A stretch of DNA of 64,000 bases from Candidatus Dojkabacteria bacterium (GCA_030583845.1 CP129478.1:407175-471174); one strand, 5' to 3'; counted from the stretch's first letter, positions 15,901-59,463 are shown. A program made the numbers and translations. The notes: a model not told the origin generated them from the sequence alone.

Positions 15901-16854
15901 GTAGAAGCCTTCAACATACTGCAATCTTCGGATCAAAGACATCTTCTTTGCCTTTGATTTCTGATTCTTGATCTGGTGCTTAAGGTTTGAGACCTCTCCA
16001 TCGAGGTCAATCTTATCCAAAAGCTCCTGAATAGCCTCAGCACCCATCTTTGCTTTGAAGAAGAGCAGGTCACGATCCTCAAGGTCAACATACTCATCTT
16101 CTGTAATTATTGTGCCTACTGTTACCTCTTTTAGAAGCTTCATCAGTTTTGTATAGAAGGTCTCGATCGACTCCTCTCGCTCTGCAAACTCGCGTCGAAC
16201 CTTCGCAACTTTCTGGCTCCTCTTATGCTCGATCTGACTTGCCTTAAATTCTGCCTTTGACTTATCTTTCTCTTTCTTGCCACTCTGCTTGATCTGACCA
16301 TCAAATTCATCGTTCACTTCCTTAAGCGCAGCTTCCAATTCTGTATCCAGTGTCTTTCGATCTTCTGCGAGATACTCTTCAGCAGCCTTTACCTTCACCT
16401 CTCGGGACTCATTGTCCACTTCAACAACCATATATCTGGTGTAGTAAACAACTGAGAGCATCTTCTTGTGTGACATATCGAGAACGATAGACATCTTGTT
16501 TGGGACACCGTATGCAAACCATACATGTGTTACAGGTACTGCGAGGTCGATGTGACCCATTCGCTCGCGTCGCACATCTTTTCGAGTTACCTCTACACCA
16601 CACTTATCACAGATAATGCCCTTGTATCGTACTTTCTTATACTTACCACAGAAGCATTCATAATTCTTGGTAGGACCGAAGATCTTCTCACAGAAGAGAC
16701 CCTCTGGCTCCATCCTATATGTTCGGTAGTTAATGGTCTCGGCTTTTGTAACCTCACCATATGACCACCCTTTGATCTGCTCCGGCGATGCAAGCGTGAG
16801 CTTCAATGCATCGAAGTCGGAGTAGTCCTGTCTAAAGTTCTTCTTGGTTTTCAT
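12928..16854 (-). CDS. rpoC: DNA-directed RNA polymerase subunit beta' (RpoC)
   Basis: 1308 aa. NADFDGDQMAVH catalytic motif, zinc-binding CxxC N-terminus, full-length collinear. Confidence 0.97.
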   Translation of the reverse strand: MKTKKNFRQDYSDFDALKLTLASPEQIKGWSYGEVTKAETINYRTYRMEPEGLFCEKIFGPTKNYECFCGKYKKVRYKGIICDKCGVEVTRKDVRRERMGHIDLAVPVTHVWFAYGVPNKMSIVLDMSHKKMLSVVYYTRYMVVEVDNESREVKVKAAEEYLAEDRKTLDTELEAALKEVNDEFDGQIKQSGKKEKDKSKAEFKASQIEHKRSQKVAKVRREFAEREESIETFYTKLMKLLKEVTVGTIITEDEYVDLEDRDLLFFKAKMGAEAIQELLDKIDLDGEVSNLKHQIKNQKSKAKKMSLIRRLQYVEGFYQNKIDPSWMIIKTLPVIPPELRPIIALSGGKFATSDLNDLYRRIINRNNRLKRLIEIGAPDVILRNEKRMLQESVDALIDNSHRPSKPMMNNKKLPYKSLTDDLRGKKGIFRRNLLGKRVDYSGRAVIVGDTRLKLHQCGLPKAVALEMFKPFLIHDLIETELAPNIKVAKEMIDAEEDIVWDILEKIIKNKPVLLNRAPTLHKYSIQAFYPVLVEGDSIRIHPLVCKAYNADFDGDQMAVHVLLTEEAIKEGVEKMLSTYNIIDIKNGGVLASPTNDMLLGYFLMTDYKESDKPRMFGSFEEAVRAYDRGLLEIDEAIFVKGKGKVHNTSVGRVMFNQVLPEDYKFINQRIGKSDVDEIIREIKDQYSLDEVVRLLDDLKMLGFKFATTLGFSFSMEDCKVDIDLKKRIQEVEQKDLHLQENYLQGLLTEQEKTNLSVTMWNEFTDELAAEAWASLDKNNPVFEMVTSGANGGQIQARQIMSIKGMARNASGDWIKLPLKGNYREGLGTFEYFVATGAGRKGVADTALRTASSGYLTRKLHDVAHDVIVRMEDCGYDGDGYIIRRADERRLSFEKTIEGRVLAQDLKDGKGKVVLKKNEIISREVAENSEELGINEVFVRSPIVCEAPLGICQMCYGHDIEQNKLVEIGKAAGVIAAQSIGEPGTQMTLKQFHFGGAKKVDITQGLPRVEELFEARTPKAEAEIASVDGKVSITTADDGSSQILITGKKLSERHYIVGNAKKVSVADGDKVTIGQTLFIDSHEKEKQAPFTGVVKIDHGIMTVTGKLDAEELISVLSGFDILVIDGQEVTAGTQITVGSVDPKKLAEYASITRAQEYVIREVQGVFSEQGVTIDDVHIEVIVRQMAKLGMVMDAGDSEYLIGSLVNRYGAELLNDGLREEGKNVALIAPKLLGIKTTALKTESFLSAMSFQEQVRVLTESAITGRVDTLQGMKENVIIGRRIPVGDEARIDIEEAKELYAEPEVITATE

Positions 16855-19800
16855 TGGTCTCCTCGCTCTTCGCGTTAGAAATTAGATCAAGGTTTATGCA
16901 GAGTGCATTCAACTCTTTTACGAGTACCTTGAATGACTCCGGTAAGTTGATATTTTCAATCTTCTCACCATGGATAATTGCTTTGTAAGCCTGGGCACGT
17001 CCCTGGACATCGTCTGATTTGATAGTGAGCATCTCCTGAAGTGCATACGGTGTCCCGTGTGCCTCGAGAGCCCATACTTCCATTTCTCCGAATCTCTGAC
17101 CACCCATCTGTGCCTTACCACCAAGAGGCTGCTGTGTTACCAATGTGTATGGTCCTGTAGATCTAGCATGTACCTTCTCGTCAGCGATATGCTTCAGCTT
17201 CAACACATACTTCATACCTACGGCTACTTTCCTTGGGAACTTCTCACCTGTCCTACCGTCATACAGATCAACCTTCTCTGCCATCTCAAATCCGTTCTTC
17301 TTCAATTCTTCTGCAATCCACTCGCTGTTTACATCCTCAAATGTTGGGATTGAGAGCTTGATTCCAAGCATCTCGGCATAGTGCCCGAAGTGCACCTCAA
17401 GCGCCTGACCCATGTTCATACGCTTTACAAATGTAGGTGTCAGGACAATATCAACTGGCTGTCCATCTGCCGTGAAAGGCATATCCTCAACTGGCCTGAT
17501 AGCTGCGATTGTGTTCTTGTCTCCGTGCCTACCCGACAGCTTATCACCGTAGTCTACTTTCTTGGTCTCTGCGACCCATACCTTCACCTGCTTTAGCACG
17601 CCTGGCTTCAACTTATCGTCATTCTCGACTGATAGCATCTGCGTCTTAACAACAATACCTTTCGATCCGTGGGGAACTCTGAGTGATACATCTCTTACTT
17701 CGCTTGCAGCTTTTCCGAAGATTGCTCTCAAGAGCCTTTCCTCAGCTGTAAGCTCCTGCTCACCTCTTGGTGCTACGATACCGGCGAGGATATCTCCACC
17801 ATTTACACGTGCACCTACTCGTACAACACCCTCGATATCAAGATTGTGCAAGATTCTGATCGCTCACATGTGGGATATCTGCAGTAAGTACCTCAGGTCC
17901 GAGATCTGTATCTCGGAGATCTTGCATATATTCTCGGATATGGATTGATGTCAAAGTGTCATCACGCACAATGCTCTCTGAGATAACTGTTGAGTCCTCA
18001 TAGTTATAACCCTCGTAGAACATCAATGCTGCTCGAATATTTGTACCAAGTGCTAGCTCACCATTGTCCATAGTTGGACCGTCAACGAGCACATCATCTT
18101 TCTTAAATTTCTGTCCTACATCGACACGTGGCCTCTCTGAGAAAGCTGTGTCATAGTTCGACCTGAAGAATTTGGTGATCTTGTACTCCTTCTTTCCAAG
18201 CTTCTTATAATCAACCAAGATATGGTCTGCATCAAGTGTCAGTACTACACCATCATCTTCTGCGAATACACCCCAACCTGACTGTCGAGCAACGATCTCT
18301 TCATATCCTGTACCAACCATAGGTGCCTGCTGCTTAAGCAGAGGGACAGCCTGTCTTTGCTGGTTTGAACCGGTAAGCGCTCGCTTCGAGTCGTCGTGGT
18401 GAACAAATGGGATAAGAGCCATACCTACACCTGCCTGCTGTGCAGCAACCAGGTCGATATAGTTCACCATCTGTACATCCTGCATCAAGAAGTCTCCCCT
18501 ATACCTTACAGGTACGATCTTCTCAAGGATGTTGCCATCTCCGTCCACCTTGATGCCTTGCAAAGTAACATGCGCATCTTTCTCACTTGCTGCATCTAGA
18601 TACTCGATCGACTCTGTGATGAACGATCGAACCTCTAGCTCCTTCATATCCTTATTCTTAGCCAACTTTGTCGCAATTGCGGCTGTGATTACCTCACCCT
18701 CTTTTACGATAAGTTTGCCAGCCTCTTTGATATCTTCTGCGGCTAATCTTCCAACTGCATCCTTGCCATTGTTCTTTACATGATTGCGGACTACGTAGTA
18801 TGGAGCCTCGATAAAACCAAAGTCGTTGATCTTTGCGAACATTGCCAGCTGGTTTACAACACCGATCGATGCGCTTTCTGGGCTGGTGATAGGGTCGATA
18901 CGTGAGTAGTGTGTGTGGTGAACCTCACGGATTGAGAATGTAGCTCTCTCCTTGGTGATACCACCTGGGCCTGATGCGGTTACTTTTCGCTTATTCTCAA
19001 GCTCTGAAAGGATATTTGCCTGATCCATGAACATTGAAAGCTGGTTTGAGCCGAAGAAGTTGAGGATCGCAGCCGAGATAGGCTTGGTGCTGACAAGCAT
19101 TGATGGTGTAAGTTTTGAATCCTCACCGTACATGCTCATCTTATCCTTAATATTCTTCTCTACTCTTCGTACACCTACTCTGAGCTGGTCGATCAATACC
19201 TCACCGACGCTTCGAATTCTTCGATTTGACAATGAGTCGATATCGTCCGCTGTTTCAACGCCGTTGTTGATCTGGATAAGCTTCTTGATTATCAAGATCA
19301 GATCATCTGTGTAAAGCCTGCACTCTGGACCCTCAAGAGGATACTCTGTGCCAAGCTTTCGGTTGAGCTGGTAACGACCAACCTTTCCGAGGTCAAACCT
19401 TCTGTCATTGAAGAAATGTCCCTTAACATACTTCTCTGCACTCTCCAGGGTTACATTCTCATCAGGTCGGAGCTTGTTGTAGACATTGATTACCGCCTCT
19501 TCTCGTGATCTTGTGAAATCTCTTGCCAATGTAGCTTCTATATATTTGTGGTCTTCACTTGTATCTACATCTTTGAAAAGATCCCTTATCTCATCGTCTG
19601 ACTCATAACCCAAAATACGGAGAAGCTCGGTAAGGAGTACCTTTGGTCTCTTCTGTACCAATCTAATTGAGATTACATCGTGCTTGTTTACTTCAAATTC
19701 ATACCACTGTCCTCGTGCTGGCATCAGCTTTGCCGAGTAAAGGTTTCTTGCTGGAGATTTATCACTGATGTCGAAAAGCACTCCCTCTGCTCGCACTACC

Positions 19801-20213
19801 TGATGGGTAACTACTCTGCGTACACCATTAATAACAAAGTAGCCATCTTCAGTCATTAGAGGCATATCTGCCACGAATATCTCCTGCTCCTTGAGCTCAC
19901 CAGTCCTGTTGTTCAGCAGCTGCGAAGTCACGTATACAGGCGCATCATAAGAAAGCCCCTTGTCAGAGGCTTCTTCTACTGTGCGATTTGGCTTCCCATA
20001 TCGAAAATCCTTAAAGTCGAGGGTCCACATCCTCTCCATAGTGTCTTTCACCGGGGTGATTTCGGAGAAGAGGTACTCAAGGCCATCCTTCTTAAATTCT
20101 TCAAACGATTTGATCTGTGCTTCGATAAGATTCGGAAATTGAATCTTTGACAGATCTGTAGCACCGAGGTTGACTCTGCCCGCCCGGTTACTCAAGATTT
20201 GCTTTGCTGCCAT
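16832..20213 (-). CDS. rpoB: DNA-directed RNA polymerase subunit beta (RpoB), split into two overlapping ORFs by an apparent +1 frameshift near 17840-17851
   Basis: The N-part ORF (to about 17838) ends ...ADIPHVSDQNLAQS*. The C-part ORF begins (TTG)HNLDIEGVVRVGARVNGGDIL. Together they align collinearly with E. coli RpoB ...[32 protein letters not shown]. One extra nucleotide within AATCTTG restores the frame. Confidence 0.9.
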
Positions 20214-20607: not shown

Positions 20608-22891
20608 ATGGGAAGACGAAAAAAAGCGACATCGGAAATAACTATTCATAGTAAAGAAACCAGGATTATACTTGGTTTATTCCTCATACTTATAGCGCTT
20701 ACGCTTATCGCTGCACCGTTCAGCACAGAGGCTGTCTTCGAGCCGATTGTATTCTATCTTGGGGTACCATCAGTGGCCTGGGGAATCCTCATACTCCTCA
20801 TGGCAATCCGCGTCATCAAAGGCCCGAGCAAGTTTACAAACTGGAAAACCATTACAGGTACGCTTCTTATCGCTCTAATTCTCAACATCCTCTTCACATT
20901 TTGGATCCCCGAGGAGATATTAAGCAGCCAGACAGACTTCTCCAATGAAGGTGGCCAACTCGGATATATATTGCACACACAGCTAAATGCCATGGTAGGA
21001 GACTTCATCGAATTTGTACTTATTATTGTATTAATAATTGTAGCCTTCTCCCTCATCTCAGGTGTAAGCCTCGAACGGATCTCAAATAGTGTGGGCAACC
21101 TATTCGACAAGCTATTTGAAAGCCGCAATAAACTGAAGCTTCCAAAAGGTGAGGATGACGACGGAATCAGCATTGTAGATAGTATGTTCAAAGGCGGCGA
21201 CGACGATGAGGCTATAGATGAAGCAATTGAGCCAGAGATTGAAAATGGAGCCGAGCCGATCGCGAATATGAGGGCAAAAACCGAGCCAAATATGAGTGCC
21301 AACGTCGAGGCAGAGATCCGTGAAGCAACAGGCAAAGAGTTCGTAGAATCACCAAAGTCAAACAGCAAAGAAAGCAGTGAAGAGGAAAGCAGTACACTTA
21401 GCGAGCCACTATATCCAAACTGGAAATTCCCACCAGTAAACCTGCTCCAGAAGCCACAGGTCAGCCCGCAAGACCCAAACCTACACAAGCGCAACGCCAG
21501 CGTCATCGAGAAAACCTCTGCGCAGCTTCAATATTGAGTCACGTATCAGCAAAGTCACAATCGGCCCAACAGTCGTCCAGTACGCTCTAAGCATTACCGT
21601 AGGCACCAAGGTCGCAAAAGTGCGCAACCTCTCAAATGACATCGCATTGGCTCTAGCGACACCTGAGTCACAAATCCGCATCGAGGCTCCGATCCCTGGC
21701 ACCTCATTAATTGGTATCGAGATCCCCAACCCTACCCCGAATTTTGTATTCATCCGTGAGCTGGTCGAGAAGCTGAATGAAGAGCACGACAAATATAGAC
21801 TACCTATCATTCTTGGTAAGAATGTCGCTGGCCAACCAATCATCAAAGACCTCACAAGTCTCCCCCACCTCTTGGTCGCAGGCGCGACTGGTACCGGTAA
21901 ATCTGTAGGTATCAACTCGCTACTAACTGGTCTACTTATGACCAAGTCTCCTGATGAGCTAAAGCTTATTCTCGTCGACCCAAAGATGGTTGAGATGGCG
22001 CCTTATAATGGCATCCCTCACCTACTCACTCCGGTCATCACAGATATGGAGCTGGTAGTAAATGCGCTACAATGGACTGTCGAGGAGATGTTGAAGCGGT
22101 ATAGGGTATTGAAGCAGATCGGAGCCAGGAATATCACCGAGTACAACGACAAGGTTGGCGATCTAACAATGCCATACATAATAGTAGTAATCGATGAGAT
22201 GGCTGACCTTATGCTTACGACTGGAGTAGATGTAGAGTCAAAGATTGTACGACTAGCTCAGATGGCACGAGCAGTGGGTATTCACCTAATATTGGCAACC
22301 CAGAGACCTTCTGTAGATGTAATCACTGGCTTGATCAAGGCAAACGTGCCGGGTCGAATCGCATACAGCGTATCGACAGCTATCGACTCACGAGTAATCA
22401 TCGACCAGACTGGCGCAGAGACACTGATCGGCAAGGGAGATATGATGTTTAAATCACCTTCTACAGGCAGACCTATCCGTATGCAGGGTGCTTGGACTGA
22501 CACAGTCGACACCGAGGCGATCATCAGCTTTATCAAAGACCAGACGAAAGAGCTTAAGTATAGCGACGCAATCACCCAGCCGAAAGAAGAGAAGTCAGAA
22601 GGCGGAGGAGCTGCTTCGGGTCATTCAGATGACGCAATGTTCGCAGATGCACTCGAGGTAGTTGTAAATGCTCAAAAGGCATCGGCCTCCCTACTCCAGA
22701 GGAGATTGAGGATCGGTTATAACCGGGCTGCCAGATTGATTGATGAATTGCATGAGGCAGGAGCAATAGGCCCACAGGAGGGTAGTTCACCACGAAAAGT
22801 GCTAGTCTCCAGCAGTGATCAGATCTTAGGCGCAGGCAGCAGTGACGTTGATGATTTTGCAGACAACCAGGACGACAAGTCCGACTTCTAG
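20608..22891 (+). CDS. ftsK: DNA translocase FtsK/SpoIIIE (N-terminal membrane domain, linker, motor, gamma domain), with an apparent +1 frameshift near 21521-21529
   Basis: ORF1 (20608..21537) gives 4-TM and linker. The frame-2 reading from about 21440 gives ...FNIESRISKVTIGPTVVQYAL... (the FtsK alpha/beta start), then the Walker motor VAGATGTGKS and gamma domain LLQRRLRIGYNRAARLIDELHEAG. The junction KTSAQ(L)/FNIES matches the FtsK ETLAEFGIEA region after skipping 1 nt. Confidence 0.85.
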
Positions 22892-52441: not shown

Positions 52442-54580
52442 ATGAACCTGAATTCGAATGTTAAAAAAATTGTAATAAAGCCCGATCACGAGCTTACGGA
52501 TGTGATTCGCCAAGTCAAGAATGCGAAGGAGGATCGCATTGTCCTCACATTCACAGAGAAATCTGACATGCTTGTTAGCCCTATCAATATGAAGGTGCTT
52601 CTCGAAGAGGCCGATGCAAATAGCAAGCTACTTGTAACCCAGATCATCCAAAACCCGGCCGGTATCCGCAACTCGAAAGCGGCGGGAATTATCACAACCG
52701 ACAGCTCTGGTGCAGTTGACGAGGATATGTGGAGTAAAGCAGAAGAGACCTTCTCAAATCGTGTCGCAGCATTTCAGAGTCAGCTTAAGTCAAACCGTAC
52801 AACCCATCAGGACACAGATACACATGCTGATCCTGAAGCAGATATTATTGTAGACCTCACCGACACAGTCAAAAATCCTGTCACCGAGATTGAATTTGAA
52901 GATCAGAACCCTGAGCTGACCCATGTTGAGGAGCTAACCACTGAATCGTCTCCAGATGAGATGAGCGATCTACAGGTAGATGATATGAGCCATAAAGCTG
53001 AAGAGGTTGCAGGTGAGGAGAATACACCGGACATGCAAAGCCAGACAAATCAGCCCGAGACAGCATTTAGCAAGCGAGTAAACAGCGCGATTAAACGCTC
53101 ACAGGAAGAGCTAATCCGCAAGAGCAGCAGCAAGAAGGTTGTAAGCGAAAGCGGAGTTGCGATCGCACTCGACAGCGACATTGACGATCAATCAGCTGGT
53201 AGTGCAAATTCTATGGTCGGTAAAGATTTCAATGCAATGACGCCGGGTGGGATGGCAAAGGCACCATCAAAGATCCCTGCAATGTCTGGCGCACAGATGT
53301 TTAAAGCACCTGGTGGCAAAGCTACATCTGGAGCCAAGTTCAATTTCGCAAATTTGAAGCTACCAAAGATAAATATGGCCGCCCTAAAGAAGAAAGGTCC
53401 TATTGTTGCGATCCCCATTGCTTTAGTTGCCCTATTCATCGTCTACATCGTGTATGCAAACGCTCCTTTTGCTTCTGCCAAGATCTATATTGAGAGTCGT
53501 CCAGTCGAGGTCGAGGAATCATTCACCGGTAAGCCAGATGTCACAGAATTTAATGTCGAAGATAGAATGGTCCAGATCAAGCAGGAAGTGGTAGAAAAGG
53601 GTCGCTCCGACTCTCGTGAGACCACCCAGACAGCACGTCGTGGTGAGAAGGCCGATGGTATAGCAAATGTGAGATGCTATCTAAATGGATCTCTAGAGCT
53701 AGCCGAGGGTACAGTGATAACTGCGCCAAACGGTCTCCAGTTCCAGACCTTAGCCACAGTGACTATGATCTGCCCATGGCAGGAAACTGTCGCAGTCGAA
53801 GCACTGGCTGTTGGAAGCGAATACAACATGCAATCGGGTACACTGTTCTCGGTACCAAACTACAATGTAAACCAGGTGGTTATGCAAAATGATCTTTCGG
53901 CATTTACAGGTGGCTCAAGCGAGGAGTACCAGGTGGTTGGACAGGTCGACATCGACAACGCCAGCAAAGATCTACAGGAATCAGCCTTCGAAGAGGCTAA
54001 TAGTGAGCTTCAAGAGATGGCAAAAGATGGCTGGAAAATTATTGATTCAACGATCAAGAACGAGGTTGTTGGTGGTGTGAAAAGCGATTACCCTGTCGGT
54101 GCAGAGGCGGAAATAGTTAATGTGTCTTTGGAGACTAAATCAACCGCGCTTTATTATAAGGAGGATGAGATAAAAGATGTGGGTGAAGAGCTTCTACTCG
54201 AGGCTGCTCGTGAGCAGAATCTGTTCGATTCAGATGAAGATCTTGAGCTGAAGCTTGGTGATGATATTTTAACTGAGGTAAGTGTGGAAAAAGTCGAGGA
54301 CACGACAGTGACAATAAAAGTGAAATCTTCCGGCTCAGTTAAGCCCGACGTCGACAAGAATCAGATCATTGCTGACCTAAAGGGCATGGGCTGGGAAAAT
54401 GGTACAAAGTATCTTGAAGATCTTAACTTCACATCTAAGGACCCTCAATATGAGTTCTCCCCTACCTGGTTCCCAGGATTCTTGTGGAGATTCCCATCAA
54501 AGCAGGGCCGGATCAAGCTCGTAGTCGAAGAAGTTGAGAGACCTGCCGAGGAGAATACGAGTGAGGCGACTGAGGAGTAA
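52442..54580 (+). CDS. hypothetical bitopic membrane protein (cytoplasmic N-domain, acidic linker, TM, large extracytoplasmic C-terminal region)
   Basis: 712 aa. TM IVAIPIALVALFIVYIVYA at about residue 320. No catalytic motif recognised. Directly follows the FtsA-like gene. Confidence 0.5.
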   Translation: MNLNSNVKKIVIKPDHELTDVIRQVKNAKEDRIVLTFTEKSDMLVSPINMKVLLEEADANSKLLVTQIIQNPAGIRNSKAAGIITTDSSGAVDEDMWSKAEETFSNRVAAFQSQLKSNRTTHQDTDTHADPEADIIVDLTDTVKNPVTEIEFEDQNPELTHVEELTTESSPDEMSDLQVDDMSHKAEEVAGEENTPDMQSQTNQPETAFSKRVNSAIKRSQEELIRKSSSKKVVSESGVAIALDSDIDDQSAGSANSMVGKDFNAMTPGGMAKAPSKIPAMSGAQMFKAPGGKATSGAKFNFANLKLPKINMAALKKKGPIVAIPIALVALFIVYIVYANAPFASAKIYIESRPVEVEESFTGKPDVTEFNVEDRMVQIKQEVVEKGRSDSRETTQTARRGEKADGIANVRCYLNGSLELAEGTVITAPNGLQFQTLATVTMICPWQETVAVEALAVGSEYNMQSGTLFSVPNYNVNQVVMQNDLSAFTGGSSEEYQVVGQVDIDNASKDLQESAFEEANSELQEMAKDGWKIIDSTIKNEVVGGVKSDYPVGAEAEIVNVSLETKSTALYYKEDEIKDVGEELLLEAAREQNLFDSDEDLELKLGDDILTEVSVEKVEDTTVTIKVKSSGSVKPDVDKNQIIADLKGMGWENGTKYLEDLNFTSKDPQYEFSPTWFPGFLWRFPSKQGRIKLVVEEVERPAEENTSEATEE

Positions 54581-54588
54581 ACCGACAC

Positions 54589-54732
54589 ATGGTTAAATTG
54601 TGGAAGGCGATTAGGCGAGTCTCTCCAATTCTTAAGGAGTACATGAACGGTGAAATTAGTGACAAAGCGCTTATTGAGAGGCTGGATCTATTTTTTGTGA
54701 AATTTAGTGAGAAGAGCGAACTGGAGATGTAG
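54589..54732 (+). CDS. possible small ORF (47 aa), weak support
   Basis: ATG at 54589. GAGGAG lies 11 nt upstream, which is a long spacer. MVKLWKAIRRVSPILKEYMNGEISDKALIERLDLFFVKFSEKSELEM. Confidence 0.2.
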   Translation: MVKLWKAIRRVSPILKEYMNGEISDKALIERLDLFFVKFSEKSELEM

Positions 54733-54752
54733 GTTGGCACTTAGGTTCACAC

Positions 54753-54766
54753 GGAGAGAAATGGAT
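54753..54766 (-). repeat. att-like direct repeat: copy of the tRNA-Ser 3' end (GGAGAGAAATGGAT on plus; 13/14 match)
   Basis: Reverse complement ATCCATTTCTCTCC matches the tRNA-Ser(GGA) T-arm 3' strand plus acceptor 3' strand. Followed by GGACGCTCGGTCG, which is shared with the copy at 55829. Confidence 0.5.
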
Positions 54767-54830
54767 GGACGCTCGGTCGATGCCCAACTATCGATTACTC
54801 TTAACAAATCTAGTGTGTAAAAAGGTTGGT

Positions 54831-55109
54831 CTAATCCTCTGACCGAACATTGGACACCTTCAGATCCTCTGATTTGTAAAAAAAATACCCACAGTGCTCT
54901 GTAAATATCCCTATTTCCCCTAAGAGCTCATTCTTAATATAAAAGGCATATCTCAATTTCATAGTTGAGTCATCTGGGAATAAAACCTCAACAGTACTAT
55001 TAGCGTCAAAATCAGTCGCTTCTAAGGTTTTACGTGCCTGGCCCGTTCGCTCATATGTATATTTTTCAATTTGTTCAACCCAGTTATCTGGGACAATATT
55101 GCTTACCAT
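54831..55109 (-). CDS. hypothetical protein (cassette ORF between att-like repeats)
   Basis: 92 aa, no motif recognised. Sits between repeat copies at 54753 and 55146. Confidence 0.4.
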   Translation of the reverse strand: MVSNIVPDNWVEQIEKYTYERTGQARKTLEATDFDANSTVEVLFPDDSTMKLRYAFYIKNELLGEIGIFTEHCGYFFYKSEDLKVSNVRSED

Positions 55110-55145
55110 TTTTGTATTATATACTGCTTATACACTTTATCCTAC

Positions 55146-55159
55146 GGAGAGAAAGGGAT
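55146..55159 (-). repeat. att-like direct repeat: exact 14-nt copy of the tRNA-Ser 3' end (GGAGAGAAAGGGAT on plus)
   Basis: Exact match to tRNA-Ser positions 55973-55986. Followed by a conserved block of about 105 nt (55160-55265) homologous to 55829-55937. Confidence 0.55.
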
Positions 55160-55379
55160 GTTTATGCGTGTCACTTCGACCCTCTCAATAAATCAGGGAG
55201 TTGAGCTGCTCCCTGATATACGTACCCCCGCTCGCTTCGCGAAGCAGAGGTTCTCACAATAATCTTCTTCATTGATCTCCAACCATCCAGAGGCTTTCGG
55301 AGATTAAATGCAAAACTACTCTTATAGTTAGTGCAAAAGATACAACAGTTCGTATAGCTCAAAGTAAGATTTTGATGCG

Positions 55380-55781
55380 TTACCCGAAATAACCCTTTTC
55401 ATATACCTTTTGAAAAAATTCCTCCATATTTTTACCTAGTTCAATAATTGCGTCGTATTCGAACATAAATGGAATAAGAATAACTTTCGATTGATTTTCT
55501 CTTAGATCGAAGGCTATAGCTTCACCTCCACCATTTGATCCTATTAAAAAGATTCCAGGAGTAAACTTTTCTACCTCATAATTGGCATTCATTTGCTTTA
55601 GATCTTCGACTTTGTACAGTATTAAATATTCCTCACCAATAAATCCTTCCCCACCATTATGTAGCTGTAGAAATGATAAATAATCAGAGGGTGTATTATC
55701 CGGCAAGTTTAGATCTAATAGGAGTTTTTTATCGACTCCTGGGTTGCCATTAAATTTTTTAAGATATTTCTCGTTGATCAT
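55380..55781 (-). CDS. SMI1/KNR4 (SUKH-1) family protein, putative polymorphic-toxin immunity protein
   Basis: 133 aa. LPDNTPSDYLSFLQLHNGGEGFIGEEYLILYKVEDL...FLIGSNGGGEAIAFDL is the SUKH/SMI1 hallmark. No toxin gene is adjacent. Confidence 0.6.
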   Translation of the reverse strand: MINEKYLKKFNGNPGVDKKLLLDLNLPDNTPSDYLSFLQLHNGGEGFIGEEYLILYKVEDLKQMNANYEVEKFTPGIFLIGSNGGGEAIAFDLRENQSKVILIPFMFEYDAIIELGKNMEEFFQKVYEKGYFG

Positions 55782-55814
55782 GTTTATAAATATTCATAAA
55801 TAATTTTTGAACTC

Positions 55815-55828
55815 GGAGAGAAAGGGAT
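55815..55828 (-). repeat. att-like direct repeat: exact 14-nt copy of the tRNA-Ser 3' end
   Basis: GGAGAGAAAGGGAT. The adjacent 55829-55937 block contains hairpins (CAGGGAG...CTCCCTG; CTTCGCGAAG palindrome) shared with 55160-55265. Confidence 0.55.
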
Positions 55829-55937
55829 GGACGCTCGGTCGCTTTGCTCCCTCTCTAGATATCAGGGAGTTAAACTGCTCCCTGATATACGTACCCCTGC
55901 TCGCTTCGCGAAGCAGAGGTTCTCACAATAATCTTCT

Positions 55938-55974
55938 CCGTTGACCTGCAACCCGATGGGTTACAGGTCAACGG
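55938..55974 (-). promoter_or_regulatory. 17-bp hairpin (CCGTTGACCTGCAACCC-GAT-GGGTTACAGGTCAACGG) abutting and overlapping the 3' end of tRNA-Ser
   Basis: Read directly. One G-U wobble. Could be a tRNA 3' processing or terminator structure, or an integrase arm site. Confidence 0.4.
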
Positions 55975-56059
55975 AGAGAAAGGGATTCGAACCCTTGGCA
56001 CAGTTTCCTGCGCGCACGCACTCCAAGCGTGTCCTTTCGACCACTCAGGCATCTCTCCT
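55972..56059 (-). tRNA. tRNA-Ser (anticodon GGA), type II with long variable arm, no encoded CCA
   Basis: Minus strand: GGAGAGA-UG-CCUG AGUGGUCGAAA GG-A-CACGC UUGGAGU GCGUG-CGCGCAGGAAACUGUGCC-AAGGG UUCGAAU CCCUU-UCUCUCC-G. All stems pair, G discriminator. Confidence 0.85.
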
Positions 56060-56192
56060 CTGCTTTCTTTTGGCTAATATGAGCCTCAGAAAGAGCATCA
56101 AGAGTATATCAAAAGTACTGTTTGGCTTAAAGAAGCTTGGATCATGATAATTGCAACTATTTGAAGAGATGCTTCTCAACCTTATCGAGGCT
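56060..56192. repeat. 133-bp segment upstream of tRNA-Ser, duplicated at 56828-56960 (about 93% identity)
   Basis: Aligned by eye, about 10 mismatches. Both copies lie directly 5' (in tRNA orientation) of a tRNA-Ser copy. Confidence 0.7.
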
Positions 56193-56297
56193 GCACAATA
56201 GTGCCATTGAATCATTAGAGAGCTTCGCAAGTTCCGATTGTATCAATAGAAAAAAGCCCAAGAAGATCTTGGGCCTAAGATCTATACCGTTTAGATA

Positions 56298-56594
56298 CTA
56301 CATCTTCGCAAGAATTTCTTGCTTCTTCTGTGTAAATTCTTCCTCTGTGAGGATTCCTTTATCTCTAAGATCTGCTAATTTCTGAAGCTCTGCTGCATAA
56401 TCAACTGCAGGAGCATCTGCCACTGGAGCGTCTGCTGCTGGCATTGGTGCTTGCTGCATCTGCGGATCTTGTGGTGCAGCCTGTGCCTGCTGCTGCGCCT
56501 GGTTACTTCCCTCGATATTCTTGCGGATTGCTCGGTTTGTTCGTGCACTGCTAACCGCCTGTGCAGTAACTGCTGCTCTTAATAATCTACCCAT
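56298..56594 (-). CDS. SHOCT-domain protein (Gln/Ala/Pro-rich linker, C-terminal SHOCT)
   Basis: 98 aa. C-terminal LQKLADLRDKGILTEEEFTQKKQEILAK matches the SHOCT motif. Confidence 0.45.
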   Translation of the reverse strand: MGRLLRAAVTAQAVSSARTNRAIRKNIEGSNQAQQQAQAAPQDPQMQQAPMPAADAPVADAPAVDYAAELQKLADLRDKGILTEEEFTQKKQEILAKM

Positions 56595-56665
56595 TATTGT
56601 GTGGTGTTAATTTATTATTACTGGATTATATCACGGCGGAGATGAAGGATTGGTTTTGGGGATTT

Positions 56666-56827
56666 GGAGAGAAAGGGATATCTACGTGTGCCACTTCGTG
56701 GCAACTTCGCTGTCCGTCATGCTTCCCACTCACTTCGCTCGCGGAGCATGTCCGCTCGAACCCTTGGCACAGTTTCCTGCGCGCACGCACTCCAAGCGTG
56801 TCCTTTCGACCACTCAGGCATCTCTCC
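56666..56827 (-). tRNA. second tRNA-Ser(GGA) copy interrupted by a 75-nt insertion inside the T-loop (between UUCGA and AUCCC); pseudo-tRNA or intron-containing
   Basis: 5' part 56827..56755 is identical to copy 1 through GGGUUCGA. Then the 75-nt insert (plus 56680-56754). Then AUCCCUUUCUCUCC (plus 56666-56679). Confidence 0.6.
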
Positions 56828-56960
56828 TTTGCTTTCTTTTAGCTCATTTGAGCCTTAGAAAGAGCATCAAGAGTATATCAAAAGTACTGTTTGGCTTAAA
56901 GAAGCTTGGATCGTGGTAATTGCGACTATTTGAAGAGATGCTTCTCAACCTTATCGAGGC
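56828..56960. repeat. second copy of the 133-bp tRNA-upstream segment
   Basis: See 56060-56192. Overlaps the last 11 codons of the ORF 56926..57213. Confidence 0.7.
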
Positions 56961-57213
56961 GAGCACTATTCCCATCAACCTGGGCTTGGGTTAGTGGCAG
57001 CTCTGCCATTACGTAACTGTGGATCTGCATTACAAGATCCTGTAGGCTTCCGAAGTTGACCTTGAAGTCTGCAAATGCAGTCTCAAGTTTATCAAATCTC
57101 TCTTCTAGTTCATCAAAACGAGCGTCAATACTTGCAAACTTTAAGTCCTGCGTTGTAAACCTTTTCTCCATCAAAGCATCAATTAATTGTAGGTCTTTCT
57201 TTGTAAGAGCCAT
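56926..57213 (-). CDS. hypothetical coiled-coil protein
   Basis: 95 aa. The C-terminal 11 codons lie inside the duplicated segment. Confidence 0.4.
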   Translation of the reverse strand: MALTKKDLQLIDALMEKRFTTQDLKFASIDARFDELEERFDKLETAFADFKVNFGSLQDLVMQIHSYVMAELPLTQAQVDGNSARLDKVEKHLFK

Positions 57214-57420
57214 ATCGCAATCAATATAAACTTAGTTGATTATATTCGATTATAAAAAGTAGATGTTAAAAATTTGTGAAATCTGGGAAATTTGTACTCC
57301 ATGTTAAAACATTCTCTCTCTACTCAAAACTACCCCCTTCATCCTCCCTACCAAGCGACTTTTGTGCGATAATATTAATGAAATCTTAATGAACTTAAAA
57401 TTTAGCTTTGCAGGAATTTA

Positions 57421-59463
57421 ATGAAAGGAATTCTTCTCAAGGAGTACAAACCCGCCCGAATGCTGTATAAGCTGTTTTTCGAGTTGATAGCAATCCCTAT
57501 TGTTGCGCTGTTTCTTCCCGGTGTGTCAATTGATAGCTATCTGCAGCTAGCCATTCTTATCACATTAACTTCTGCTGTCTTTGCACTGATTTGGCCAATC
57601 ATTGCGAAGTATCTTTTAACAATCCTTCTCTACTCCGCTGGCATCTTAAACCTCCTACTTAATACATTAATCATCTGGCTACTCGCCCAGTTATTCCCTG
57701 GCGTTCAAATTGAGACACTATGGAGTGCCTTTATGGTGAGTATCTTAATAATGGGTTTTCGTATGTTGGCCGACGCTATTTTAAATATAGATGAAGAGGG
57801 CTCGTTTTACCGTCTATACACCAAGCGTGTCGCCTATAAGAATAGCCCTATAAAAGAACAGCTTGAGTCGTCAAAAGAATTAGATGATGGGACAATTTTT
57901 ATAGAGATCGACGGATTGTCCGCCGATGTCCTTAAATTTGCTGTCAGAAATGGCTATATGCCAACTTTACAACAGCTGATGATGGAACAGGGCTATAAGA
58001 TTCGTGAATGGGTCTGCGAGTACGGTGCATCCACACCGGTATGCCAGGCAGGAATACTCCAAGGAAAGAATAAAAATCTACCAGCATTCAGGTGGTTCGA
58101 CCGATCCGAGCAGAAAGTGAAGACAGGAAACAATCCTCAGCACTCTGCAGAGGTATTAAAAGAGATATCGAATGGTAAAGGGCTGTTAGCTGATCATGGA
58201 ATTAGCATCGGTAATATTTTTACAGGTGACGCAGAAGAGAGTGTTGCAACATTTAGTACGCTTCTAAATAAGAAAGATCGAGGTCTAAATTATTTTTACT
58301 ACTATTTCCTAAATCCTGATAACTACTTAAGGTCGTTTGTACTTTTCTGGATTGATGTTCTCTCGGAGATTAAAGATCAGCTATATCTTCAGGCTTATAA
58401 CATTCAACCTCGAATCAGAAAACAGTGGACTATGCCATTCATACGAGGTTTTCTCTCTATCTTTATGAGGGATATGCTTACCAGCGTGCTTATTGGGAAG
58501 ATGTATGAAGGGATTAAAAATGTATATATCGTTTATGCTGGGTACGATTTTATTGCCCATGAAAACGGGTTGGAGAGAGGTGAGGCGATTAAGGCCTTGA
58601 CGCAGACCGATAGAAAGATCAGCAATATAATGAAAGCGGCACAAACGACCCCTAGAAAATATCGGTTTGTGTTTCTGTCGGATCATGGGCAAAGCCAGGG
58701 AGCAAGCTTTAAGCAGCGCTACGGCTACTCTATTGATAAGTATATTTCTGAGATTGTTGGTCATTCGGCAGGAATCGAGGCATTGGAGCTTTCAGAGCCT
58801 GAAGCTGTTGATCAGCTAAGCCTCATATTGACTGAACAGTCCTATGAAAGCGGTAAGATTCACAAGGCAATTGGGAAGCTTTTCAGGCAAAAAACAAGGC
58901 CACTACCATCAAATAAGAAAGTGAAAAAGGTGTTGAGTGATGGGTCAAGTAGCCGTGCTGACATAAATAAGATCGTATGCCTCTTCTCGGGCAACCAAGC
59001 CGAGCTCTACTTTAAAGGCAATAAAAAGCGAGTAACAGTAGAGGAGATTAATGAAAAATATCCTAAGCTTATAAACTTGCTGAGCAGCCACCCAGGCGTC
59101 GGTTTTATATCGGTAGTCAGCGAGAAAGATGGCCCGCTAGTGATTGGCAAAAAAGGTACAAGATACCTAGATTCCGACAAGCTTAAAGGCCAAGATCCAC
59201 TCCTAAACTTTGATAAATATGCTGTTGACCAGCTTAAGCAGGTAAATACTTACGATACAGCTGCGGACATTATTATTAACAGCACACTTTACAGAAACAC
59301 CGATGAAGTAGCAGCGTTTGAAGAGTTTATTAGCAGCCATGGTGGCATAGGTGGTGGTCAGACAAAGCCGTTCATCATGTTTCCAAAGCAGTTTGAGTAC
59401 CCAGCCCAGCCAGTTTACAGGTCAACTGAGCTTCACAAAGTTATGAAATCCTGGCTCGCTTAA
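57421..59463 (+). CDS. membrane-anchored alkaline-phosphatase-superfamily protein (type I phosphodiesterase / nucleotide pyrophosphatase-like)
   Basis: 680 aa. N-terminal polytopic segment (about 4 TM). IFIEIDGLSADVL...GASTPVCQAGILQG and VFLSDHGQSQG resemble AlkP-core metal-ligand motifs (DGL..., SDHG). Confidence 0.55.
   Translation: MKGILLKEYKPARMLYKLFFELIAIPIVALFLPGVSIDSYLQLAILITLTSAVFALIWPIIAKYLLTILLYSAGILNLLLNTLIIWLLAQLFPGVQIETLWSAFMVSILIMGFRMLADAILNIDEEGSFYRLYTKRVAYKNSPIKEQLESSKELDDGTIFIEIDGLSADVLKFAVRNGYMPTLQQLMMEQGYKIREWVCEYGASTPVCQAGILQGKNKNLPAFRWFDRSEQKVKTGNNPQHSAEVLKEISNGKGLLADHGISIGNIFTGDAEESVATFSTLLNKKDRGLNYFYYYFLNPDNYLRSFVLFWIDVLSEIKDQLYLQAYNIQPRIRKQWTMPFIRGFLSIFMRDMLTSVLIGKMYEGIKNVYIVYAGYDFIAHENGLERGEAIKALTQTDRKISNIMKAAQTTPRKYRFVFLSDHGQSQGASFKQRYGYSIDKYISEIVGHSAGIEALELSEPEAVDQLSLILTEQSYESGKIHKAIGKLFRQKTRPLPSNKKVKKVLSDGSSSRADINKIVCLFSGNQAELYFKGNKKRVTVEEINEKYPKLINLLSSHPGVGFISVVSEKDGPLVIGKKGTRYLDSDKLKGQDPLLNFDKYAVDQLKQVNTYDTAADIIINSTLYRNTDEVAAFEEFISSHGGIGGGQTKPFIMFPKQFEYPAQPVYRSTELHKVMKSWLA

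Follow-up and report, generated by a model that had tools for sequence, protein, structure and literature searches.

Tandem islands at the ends of tRNA and tmRNA genes

Stacked scars of tRNA or tmRNA gene ends are known from the ssrA locus of Dehalococcoides (PMC3146451), the tycheposon islands of Prochlorococcus (bioRxiv 10.1101/2020.12.28.424599), and the accretion of streptococcal CIMEs (Pavlovic 2004, reviewed in PMC5704250). The ssrA islands are kilobases long, and every repeat in them is directly preceded by a conserved, element-borne motif of 15 bp (McMurdie et al. 2011, PMC3146451); a six-gene integration module that includes a CcrB-like serine recombinase is present in 16 of them, and some units, having no such module, were suggested to be fixed or mobilisable in cis (PMC3146451). 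Partial tRNAs and decayed elements lie scattered in tycheposon islands (Hackl et al., bioRxiv 10.1101/2020.12.28.424599). In CIMEs, the integration and transfer genes have been lost, attL and attR are kept, and the units form a tandem stack at the 3'-end of the target gene (PMC5704250).

The window, i.e., the whole stretch of 64,000 nt of Dojkabacteria DNA analysed here, contained a locus sharing features with each of these systems. As in the ssrA islands, tandem units lie downstream of one tRNA-like gene, each bounded by a short 3'-end direct repeat, and a motif of element type, not aligning with the gene itself, is found directly upstream of every repeat; however, the target is tRNA-Ser instead of tmRNA, two upstream motifs alternate instead of one, the units are only 0.15-0.67 kb, and no recombinase was seen in the window. 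With the tycheposon islands the locus shares a streamlined host genome, a tRNA anchor, older elements pushed inward, and partial-tRNA remnants, whereas tycheposons are defined by tyrosine recombinase and replication modules, none of which were present in the window, and their islands extend over tens of kilobases versus 2.5 kb. The CIME-like traits are the tandem stack and the loss of integration and transfer genes with attL and attR retained; however, mobilisation of CIMEs by a related ICE has been shown experimentally, whereas the window had no ICE, conjugation genes or evidence of excision, and its units are about ten times smaller.

Two further systems were considered. The locus is reminiscent of integrons in that its units are small, mostly contain a single gene, all point the same way and have a foldable, recurring recombination-type site between them; nevertheless, intI, attI, Pc and any Phage_integrase-type domain were absent from the window, the recurring site is an exact tRNA 3'-end where an integron would have an attC palindrome, degenerate and with the core GTTRRRY, each ORF appears to have a -10-like box of its own, and the hairpin block occurs in only two of the four units, so that an integron was rejected. 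Orphan or poly-immunity loci of polymorphic toxin systems (SUKH/SMI1-KNR4) are similar in having a lone SUKH gene with no adjacent toxin in a variable islet, but only one recognisable immunity-type gene was found here.

The tRNA-Ser(GGA) gene and its 3'-end repeats

The tRNA gene and the repeats of its 3'-end are as follows:

55972-56058, minus strand: intact tRNA-Ser(GGA) (ARAGORN; Rfam RF00005, 54 bits)
55935-55977, minus strand: terminator-like hairpin of 20 bp, including the last 5 nt of the tRNA
56666-56679, minus strand: 14-mer copy A, exact, followed by A
55973-55986, minus strand: 14-mer copy B, exact, within the intact tRNA-Ser
55815-55828, minus strand: 14-mer copy C, exact, followed by G
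55146-55159, minus strand: 14-mer copy D, exact, followed by G
54753-54779, minus strand: pre-core b arm (54767-54779) and 14-mer copy E (54753-54766, one mismatch, followed by G)

The intact tRNA-Ser(GGA) gene, reported in an earlier note on this DNA, was called by both ARAGORN and Rfam. Its last 14 nt, ATCCCTTTCTCTCC, recurred exactly on the minus strand at 56666, 55973, 55815 and 55146, and ATCCATTTCTCTCC at 54753 on the same strand is this 14-mer with one mismatch. Three further copies had been claimed downstream of the tRNA; those at 55815 and 55146 were exact, whereas the mismatch in that at 54753 had been left unmentioned, and the intervals, given previously as 136, 660 and 378 bp, were computed to be 144, 655 and 379 nt between successive 14-mers. 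Units of 144-655 nt between repeats are far below the size of any autonomous integrative element, an observation that speaks against integration. The five minus-strand matches compare with 0.65 expected by chance, and at least five were obtained in none of 100 shuffles. Four of the five copies were directly followed by the discriminator base G, and the identity started at one fixed base, A59 in the T-loop, in all copies. The region of the last repeat (54753-54779) was 94% identical to 55811-55841. Thus, a full-length tRNA gene stands at one end of the island, and 3'-end repeats in the same orientation delimit the segments downstream. The intact tRNA is followed by a trailer, GTTGACCTGTAACCCATC, which was also kept after a core in two relatives (L019 and L025).

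A pseudo-tRNA body was not detected 5' of copies C, D and E by blastn (word size 7), ARAGORN or Rfam (E<=5). A decayed tandem array of tRNA genes, raised by the earlier note as what would overturn its reading, was rejected: full pseudo-tRNAs were absent at 55815, 55146 and 54753, the tRNA 5' part being present only at copy A (56666).

The disrupted upstream copy

Upstream of the intact gene, the following features were observed:

56756-56960, minus strand: duplicate copy A, consisting of the ORF95 3'-end, the tRNA promoter region, and the 5' 72 nt of tRNA-Ser (56756-56827)
55987-56191, minus strand: duplicate copy B, consisting of a fragment of the ORF95 3'-end, the promoter region, and the tRNA 5' part
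56680-56755, minus strand: 76 nt inserted after T-loop position 58, ahead of the 14-mer, the last 19 nt being pre-core a

The duplication spans 205 nt (55987-56191 versus 56756-56960) with 96% identity; all 8 mismatches are confined to the flank, the 72 tRNA nt being identical. Copy A runs from the tRNA 5' 72 nt, ending at TTCGA in the T-loop, through 76 unrelated nt to the 14-mer, with A in place of the discriminator G. An upstream duplication of the tRNA had thus been recognised correctly as a repeat; it is, however, a disrupted copy with 76 nt in the T-loop, called as a tRNA by neither ARAGORN nor Rfam, and not a second tRNA gene.

Element arms and folded blocks

The sequence 5' of each non-tRNA repeat was not tRNA-like and fell into two families, a (at 56680 and 55160) and b (at 55829 and 54767). 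The pre-core b arm is the 13-nt sequence CGACCGAGCGTCC (55829-55841, minus strand), and the pre-core a arm at 56680-56698 on the same strand forms a small hairpin, GCCAC-GAA-GTGGC. Element-derived, non-tRNA sequence abuts each of these repeats at a fixed insertion point. Two arms are preceded by a larger block:

55829-55953, minus strand: block 1 (two strong hairpins and GAGAGGG) and pre-core b arm (repeat search, blastn)
55160-55284, minus strand: block 2 and pre-core a arm (55160-55178) (repeat search, blastn)

The two blocks shared 141 nt with 85% identity (55814-55953 versus 55145-55284), and block 2 starts inside a copied tRNA terminator, in the 3' half (loop). It had been stated that a structured block begins every interval; this did not hold, since the block was present in two of the three intervals only, at their 3'-ends abutting the next 14-mer, and the third interval had only the 13 nt of CGACCGAGCGTCC in common with the first. 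Block 1 was predicted to fold with -58 kcal/mol (z -5.9) and block 2 with a z of -3.9, whereas the z-scores of unit E (0.17) and of the 76-nt insert of copy A (0.39) were near zero. In the consensus fold of blocks 1 and 2, which are paralogous copies, none of the 37 predicted pairs showed a compensatory change. Three of the four non-tRNA cores were perfect although the adjoining sequence had diverged by 10-15%. The motif CGAAG[CT]G[AG] occurred 13 times in the whole window, 5 of them in the array, all on one strand.

Genes between the repeats

Four ORFs were associated with the array:

56926-57213, minus strand: ORF95, predicted coiled-coil protein upstream of the tRNA (ORF list)
56298-56594, minus strand: SHOCT-domain ORF, 98 aa (PF09851, 2.5e-10)
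55380-55781, minus strand: SMI1/KNR4 (SUKH) ORF, 133 aa (PF09346, 1.1e-10)
54831-55109, minus strand: ORF92, unnamed small-protein family (154 family clusters)

The last 13 codons of ORF95 lie inside the 205-nt duplication. Its Pfam hits were sub-threshold coiled-coil matches only; an identical protein was found on an independent Logan contig (L030), and no relationship was seen to the 88-aa ORF that takes its place in L019. The SHOCT and SUKH assignments, both made earlier, were borne out by the Pfam matches, that of SUKH to PF09346 scoring 42.6 bits against a curated cut-off of 25.4. Equally, the SUKH gene stands with no toxin partner, as had been noted, for no toxin domain was detected in the neighbouring ORFs with Pfam, NCBIfam, PHROGs or PADLOC; neither an immunity nor a toxin assignment was obtained for ORF92 and the SHOCT protein, and ORF92 had no Pfam match. 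An intrinsic terminator was predicted for the SHOCT ORF at 56254-56276 (terminator scan) and, by eye, a -10-like box was seen before each ORF. The SHOCT protein, the SUKH immunity-type protein and ORF92 are probably expressed independently.

The SUKH gene forms a low-GC patch (0.32-0.35 versus 0.42-0.50 around it), and its closest homologues (73% identity) occur in unrelated contexts with neither the tRNA nor the block; it alone looks like a recent import. The SHOCT protein was 78% identical to that of an ORF at the equivalent place in L025, and ORF92 was 61% identical to an ORF adjoining the Baseplate_J gene there. Both genes are kept in the same order in L025, with a neighbouring gene 69% identical at the protein level, so that part of the islet is old and vertically inherited. 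The two are conserved long-term residents, neither fresh cargo nor freely shuffling cassettes. The conserved order counts against integration.

Comparison with relatives

The gene content between the tRNA-Ser and a conserved Baseplate_J gene was different in every relative recovered, which agrees with the accessory variability that a comparison of related genomes had been proposed to reveal. Two NUDIX genes were present in L019 and L026, seven genes in L025, and three in the window. L019 and L026 were 91% identical overall and 95-99% in the NUDIX genes, and nevertheless differed precisely at the tRNA junction.

Both arm families were also found beside the same tRNA 3'-end in other Dojkabacteria, and the arms were conserved across species whose neighbouring proteins were only 66-71% identical. 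L026 and L027 have GACAGCAAAGATGTCACGAAGTGACACACGGGAT directly followed by ATCCCTGTCTCTCC at the contig end, 84% identical over 55 nt to 56660-56714 of the window, that is, to the 14-mer with the last 35 nt (56680-56714) of the copy A insert. In L025, GCCGAGCGTCC is directly followed by ATCACTGTCTCTTC, an arm beside the tRNA 3'-end, and the decayed core precedes GTTGACATGTAA, the trailer found after the intact tRNA in the window. This decayed core with the native trailer reads as a textbook attR, a displaced old end of the tRNA.

The 22-nt 3'-end of tRNA-Ser also occurred at or near the ends of proviral contigs in IMG/VR, and in L013 a tyrosine integrase adjoins tRNA-Ser, part of the tRNA being repeated at a distance of 9.4 kb.

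Search for a recombinase and a donor element

The search for recombinases covered the 64-kb window of the 1.04-Mb genome and the loci of the relatives. No integrase (in agreement with the earlier note), resolvase or transposase domain was detected in the window at Pfam E<=1e-5 (40 ORFs of at least 120 aa judged non-spurious and the ORFs of the locus) or in the relatives' loci; this lack of a recombinase domain weighs against integration. An intact donor element was found neither in IMG/VR and JGI metagenomes by DNA pattern nor in GTDB genomes, which were searched with a tRNA pattern of 35 nt and by scanning for neighbour proteins. Likewise, no element with the block or the arms was recovered by DNA-pattern search of IMG/VR and JGI metagenome contigs, which also weighs against integration.

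Probable serial integration at tRNA-Ser(GGA)

The locus is probably, though by no means certainly, a small genomic islet generated by repeated site-specific recombination at tRNA-Ser(GGA). Each incoming element would itself carry the terminal 14-15 nt of the tRNA, and therefore a working tRNA would be rebuilt at every integration, with the previous 3'-end and the element arm in front of it shifted further downstream. Deletions between or beside repeats may then have left nothing of the elements but single genes and fragments of arms. Local duplication presumably contributed as well: copying of 141 nt of trailer and arm would have produced the second block, and copying of 205 nt of promoter and tRNA 5' part the disrupted upstream copy. 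Both repeats are local copies, and the array would have been shaped by duplication as well as integration. The recombinase may be encoded elsewhere in the genome or may have been lost long ago. What the sequences show are the repeats, the two arm families and their recurrence in other species, the variable genes, and no recombinase in view; the enzyme itself, the order of events and whether any site is active today are inferred. Read so, the islet is what mobile DNA ordinarily leaves behind after repeated insertion at one tRNA, worn to tiny pieces. Decayed remains of serial 3'-end integrations, one of two options offered by the earlier note, are supported by the element-like arms in other species, the variable genes, and the displaced tRNA end in L025.

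Alternative explanations

The other option, a cassette array of integron-like or satellite type mobilised in trans, found no positive evidence, there being neither a recombinase in the window or the relatives' loci nor a donor in the collections searched, nor a block in all units. In its fullest form it would be an active platform comparable to an integron or a pdif-module system anchored on the tRNA, in which a trans-acting chromosomal recombinase inserts, deletes and reshuffles units at the T-loop, each unit of 0.15-0.7 kb consisting of one gene and a folded arm of about 125 nt ending in the tRNA 3' core. The perfect cores beside diverged sequence, the arms kept across species with dissimilar neighbouring proteins, the strong folds of the blocks, and the five same-strand CGAAG[CT]G[AG] motifs, which may be of the arm-type binding sort, are consistent with such a platform. 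It is nevertheless unlikely: besides the missing recombinase, the block is limited to two of the four units, as paralogous copies with 0/37 compensated pairs, SHOCT and ORF92 are in the same order in L025, a free or relocated unit turned up in none of the collections searched, independent contigs from this strain or one 98% identical to it stop at the repeats and reveal no alternative junction, and each ORF appears to have its own -10-like box.

Purely local evolution without foreign elements, in which the tRNA 3' region and its trailer were multiplied by segmental duplication and unequal crossing-over, would account for the 205- and 141-nt repeats as copies of local sequence, for the start of block 2 in the loop of a tRNA-terminator copy, and for the vertical conservation of SHOCT and ORF92. 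As the whole explanation it is improbable, because non-tRNA sequence, with no T-stem, precedes cores C, D and E from exactly A59, and the SUKH gene is compositionally foreign. Moreover, the arm families precede different genes in other species (NUDIX there, SHOCT here), so that the arms move together with the core, independently of the flanks.

The block and the 14-mer might instead form a functional tRNA-like RNA, serving between genes as punctuation for RNase P/Z processing or as small RNAs, its closing stem and a T-arm-like stem together stacking 12 bp in the manner of an acceptor/T minihelix. A predicted cloverleaf-like fold is common to units C and D, with a 7-bp stem between the 14-mer and GAGAGGG, a 5-bp closing stem, and an end at the discriminator G; hairpin substitutions are few and in loops or U-A to U-G, and the pre-core a hairpin has one compensatory change (GCCAC/GTGGC in copy A versus GTCAC/GTGAC in L027). 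This reading is quite improbable in view of only two paralogous copies with no both-sided changes, the unstructured unit E (z 0.17) and 76-nt insert (z 0.39), and the closing-stem partner in C that doubles as half of the tRNA terminator; Rfam gave no match at E<=5 and no homologue was found elsewhere.

That copy A is a working tRNA gene, its 76-nt insert being removed as an intron or tolerated as an expanded T-loop bulged at 59/60, is very unlikely. Its promoter stretch and 72 tRNA nt are identical to those of copy B while the flank differs at 8/133 positions (Fisher p 0.05), its 14-mer is intact, and the 3' part of the insert is kept in L026 and L027; however, the discriminator is A, and the intact tRNA-Ser lies 700 nt downstream. 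A tRNA intron, either group I or archaeal bulge-helix-bulge, was rejected: the insert had no group I or other Rfam match and an insignificant fold, and its last 19 nt recur in unit D with no tRNA 5' half, and are therefore an element arm and not an intron end. The archaeal splicing endonuclease is not known from bacteria.

Finally, an assembly artefact joining two strain haplotypes as a false tandem, conceivable for a source record that is a MAG with copies A and B 96% identical, is scarcely credible, since the A/B homology stops sharply upstream inside ORF95, unexpected for alleles, L030 (a 97.9%-identical strain from another run, independently assembled) ends at the first base where A and B differ, the signature of both continuations being present, and the L024 contig breaks inside the stretch common to blocks 1 and 2.

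Implications

The pattern of the islet is the expected one, and it belongs with the known tRNA-anchored tandem islands. In annotation, the upstream "tRNA", being a disrupted copy, should be left out of the gene count, and the 14-mers are to be regarded as att-type scars. A Patescibacteria genome of about 1 Mb, in an otherwise strictly housekeeping neighbourhood, still has a tRNA-anchored hotspot at which accessory genes turn over between close relatives. If the active platform were real, it would represent integron-like gene capture built on a tRNA gene in bacteria with tiny genomes; and if the partner recombinase were found, the locus would offer a tractable case of tiny units mobilised in trans, from a lineage whose mobile elements are poorly described.

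The tRNA-Ser(GGA) gene and its 3'-end repeats

The single tRNA gene of the locus, on which ARAGORN and Rfam agreed, was tRNA-Ser(GGA) at 55972-56058 on the minus strand; searching 54300-57500 against Rfam at E<=5 yielded this tRNA and its antisense shadow and nothing more. Its 3'-end 14-mer, ATCCCTTTCTCTCC (the core), occurred as exact minus-strand copies at 56666, 55973 (the tRNA itself), 55815 and 55146, and on the same strand with one mismatch at 54753. Five matches stood against 0.65 expected, and none of 100 shuffles reached five, which bore out the tRNA-Ser 3'-end repeats reported in an earlier note; the intervals that it gave as 136, 660 and 378 bp measured 144, 655 and 379 nt. The tRNA discriminator base, G, directly followed four of the five copies, and A followed the copy at 56666. 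In every non-tRNA copy, identity to the tRNA started at one base, A59 in the T-loop, and the sequence immediately 5' of the core was not tRNA and belonged to one of two families, called here arms a and b.

Repeat families and order of parts along the minus strand (5' to 3')
Arm a: CGAAGTGRCACRCRTARAY, at 56680 and 55160 (repeat D3/D4 analysis)
Arm b: CGACCGAGCGTCC, at 55829 and 54767 (repeat D3/D4 analysis)
Part 1: ORF95 (56926-57213, minus), promoter, tRNA 5' part, 76-nt insert ending in arm a, core A (56666)
Part 2: SHOCT gene (56298-56594, minus) with normal intrinsic terminator, ORF95 fragment, promoter, intact tRNA (core B, 55973)
Part 3: 20-bp terminator-like hairpin, structured block 1, arm b, core C (55815)
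Part 4: SUKH gene (55380-55781, minus), half copy of the 20-bp terminator-like hairpin, structured block 2, arm a, core D (55146)
Part 5: ORF92 (54831-55109, minus), arm b, core E (54753)
Part 6: 3' end of the convergent Baseplate_J-like gene

Duplication and the disrupted upstream tRNA copy

A 205-nt duplication (56756-56960 versus 55987-56191, 96% identical) ended at TTCGA in the T-loop, and in the upstream copy, copy A, 76 unrelated nt separated TTCGA from the 14-mer. The tRNA and its 5' flank had earlier been described as duplicated; this held for the 205 nt, but since the upstream copy is disrupted by the 76 nt, there is no duplicated tRNA. Between copy A and copy B (the one with the intact tRNA), the 133-nt flank accounted for all 8 mismatches, and the 72 tRNA nt and the promoter stretch were identical (Fisher p 0.05), a distribution that hints weakly at constraint on copy A or at its gene conversion. 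No Rfam family matched the 76-nt insert, and its fold was not significant (z 0.39). Its last 19 nt were found again in unit D, which is without the tRNA 5' half; the insert was therefore read as an arm of an element rather than an intron.

Two observations speak for a real duplication. Homology between copies A and B stopped inside ORF95, as alleles would not do, and the contig L030 (ERR15459717), assembled independently from a 97.9%-identical strain, stopped at window position 56857, the last base of a 56-nt stretch common to both copies, as expected if that sample holds both continuations. The contig of a 99.97% identical strain (L024, SRR24881069) stopped inside the stretch common to blocks 1 and 2.

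The structured block

The block was a 141-nt repeat (55814-55953 versus 55145-55284, 85% identity) present in two intervals only, at their 3' ends and abutting the next 14-mer; its existence was as claimed, but not its placement at the beginning of each interval. Folding gave -58 kcal/mol (z -5.9) for unit C and a z of -3.9 for unit D. Their consensus comprised two long hairpins, a 7-bp stem in which GAGAGGG pairs with the CCCTTTC within the 14-mer, and a closing stem of 5 bp that uses the remaining TCTCC. The outline was cloverleaf-like, with stacked stems totalling 12 bp as in a tRNA minihelix, a resemblance of the predicted fold that is suggestive. The two copies were paralogues, with compensatory changes at none of the 37 predicted pairs between units C and D, and the fold was absent from unit E and from the copy-A insert. 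The block core, CTGCTTCGCGAAGCGAGCNGGGG, and a variant of it had no match in IMG/VR or JGI metagenome contigs. The motif CGAAG[CT]G[AG] occurred 13 times in the window, five of them in the array and there on one strand only; these copies would fit putative arm-type protein-binding sites.

Genes in and beside the array

Pfam matches identified SUKH (PF09346, 1.1e-10) and SHOCT (PF09851, 2.5e-10) proteins, in agreement with the earlier reading of these ORFs. ORF92 and ORF95 belonged to no Pfam family, the small ORFs had no match in NCBIfam or PADLOC, and in PHROGs the SUKH, SHOCT and ORF95 proteins matched unknown-function families only. There was no exact-sequence record of the SUKH, SHOCT or neighbouring 680-aa protein.

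The SUKH gene formed a low-GC patch (0.32-0.35 versus 0.42-0.50 in the surroundings), and its nearest homologues, at 73% identity, were in unrelated contexts without tRNA, block or arm; in the contexts of the homologues on L021-L023, the common sequence was the coding part only. The gene looks imported. SHOCT and ORF92 were common to the relative L025 in the same order, which points to genes long resident in the islet. For ORF95, which lies upstream of the tRNA, the relative L019 had no counterpart, and an unrelated 88-aa ORF was at that place.

Proteins of about 90 aa make up the unnamed family of ORF92 (154 clusters at E<=1e-3, no Pfam model), with invariant residues D46, S48, F69, E71, H72 and G74 and the motif FPDGS...FTEHCGYH; one member, P0193 (1107 aa), contained 8 tandem copies. 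An AlphaFold model built with the alignment (pLDDT 93) predicted an N-terminal helix and a small SH3/Sm-like barrel, to which no PDB structure was convincingly similar (best E 0.016, small YgdR-type barrels). Core E and the Baseplate_J gene were separated by a 250-nt gap containing a 47-aa ORF (54589-54732, plus strand) that was a called gene on L024 and had no family match; the gap was absent in L025, where ORF91 ended 10 nt from the Baseplate_J gene.

The locus in relatives

Among GTDB representatives, a DNA scan with a 35-nt tRNA pattern, probably too specific, and a protein scan with the 680-aa neighbour gave nothing. Logan contigs of four relatives were reached through homologues of two flanking proteins.

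Relatives compared at the locus
L019/L020: flanking proteins 66-70% identical; FtsA, Baseplate_J, tRNA-Ser(GGA) and a 687-aa gene in synteny
L026/L027/L028: 91% identical to L019 overall and 95-99% in the NUDIX genes; differing exactly at the tRNA-Ser junction
L025: 69% identical; seven genes between the Baseplate_J gene and the contig end

On L019/L020, two NUDIX genes stood where the window has its cassettes, and a degenerate second tRNA end, GAATCCCTGTCTACCC, lay 21 nt past the tRNA, those 21 nt opening with a homologue of the window tRNA trailer. Upstream of the NUDIX genes, L026-L028 carried GACAGCAAAGATGTCACGAAGTGACACACGGGAT, ATCCCTGTCTCTCC and G in succession, a stretch that over 55 nt matched the window at 84% identity, along the 3' part of its 76-nt insert, arm a and core A; the independent assemblies L026 and L027 stopped at the same base by the junction. 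On L025, the ORF92 homologue (61%) was right beside Baseplate_J and the SHOCT gene (78%) further up, and the far end read CTAGAGAGG...GCCGAGCGTCC, ATCACTGTCTCTTC and GTTGACATGTAA, i.e. arm b, a decayed core and the tRNA trailer as in the window. Judged by its sequence, this end is a textbook candidate attR, in which the old tRNA 3' end and native trailer would have been displaced by whatever came in with arm b. These comparisons indicate that the arms move together with the core rather than the flanking genes, and that the interval from tRNA-Ser to Baseplate_J turns over between close relatives.

In coordinates, L019 6824-6874 (minus) comprised the intact tRNA, 21 nt and a decayed core, and L026 8391-8444 (minus) a long arm a followed by an intact core; at the tRNA-Ser junction, the L026 type broke in three independent assemblies. 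The 712-aa Baseplate_J-like protein (52442-54580, plus strand; L019 3221-5392; L025 3134-5269) was encoded directly after ftsA, a synteny kept in all Dojkabacteria relatives recovered, and makes an unusual neighbour of a cell-division gene.

Searches for elements and a recombinase

Integrase, resolvase or transposase domains were found in none of the 40 non-spurious ORFs of at least 120 aa in the window. IMG/VR held no match to the arm-plus-core patterns of either family, or to the tRNA 5' 28-mer and trailer pattern; in metagenomes, the pre-core a pattern matched once, on L029, a chance match inside unrelated coding sequence. An active platform with cassettes mobilised in trans is improbable, and nothing found supports it. 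A retroviral-type primer-binding site was rejected, no TGG/CCA complement being present in the flanks of the five copies on our own reading of the sequence, as were IS200/IS605, IS110 bridge RNA and CAST homing, for which transposase and Cas genes were lacking and the repeat is a one-orientation 14-mer.

The rest of the window was housekeeping (GroEL, DnaK/GrpE/HrcA, RpoB/C, S7, S12, FtsK, DnaG, sigma-70, MetRS, LeuRS, RNase J, FtsA, YidC). Here rpoB (16832-20213, minus) consisted of two overlapping ORFs, 17838-20213 with Rpb2 domains 1-3, 45 and the start of domain 6, and 16832-17851 with the rest of 6 plus 7; the gene may be split, or there may be a frameshift or a sequencing error. FtsK (20608-22891, plus) was likewise in two ORFs, a 4TM membrane part (20608-21537) and the motor with the gamma domain (21620-22891). 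The 680-aa protein (57421-59463, plus) was a fusion of a holin-like 4-TM domain (PF04020) and a type I phosphodiesterase domain (PF01663), an architecture with >1300 homologues in Chloroflexota, Patescibacteria and Methanobacterium.

Comparison with known systems and origin of the locus

The closest description is that of the Dehalococcoides ssrA island region, in which islands lie in tandem downstream of one tRNA-like gene, each bounded by a 20-bp 3'-end repeat, with a conserved 15-bp motif directly upstream of every repeat that does not align with the gene; for some units without an integration module, cis-mobilisation or fixation was suggested there (PMC3146451). Like stacking, with scattered partial tRNAs and decayed elements, is described for Prochlorococcus tycheposon islands (bioRxiv 10.1101/2020.12.28.424599), and decay followed by renewed integration at a retained att site is the CIME/accretion model (PMC5704250). 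Several IMG/VR proviral contigs had the exact 22-nt 3' end of the window tRNA-Ser at or close to their own ends; on one of these contigs, L013, a tyrosine integrase lay next to tRNA-Ser, with a partial tRNA repeat at the other end. The window differs from known systems in its very small units, the lack of a recombinase in view, the alternation of two arm types and the disrupted second tRNA copy.

The array of the earlier note consists of real repeats, although its intervals, block placement and tRNA copy were inaccurate. It is probably explained by serial site-specific integration at tRNA-Ser(GGA), with deletion and local duplication thereafter. Elements would have integrated one after another at the T-loop of this gene, and the later deletion and local duplication would have left behind att-type scars and arm fragments together with three small genes; among these genes, SUKH alone looks recently acquired.
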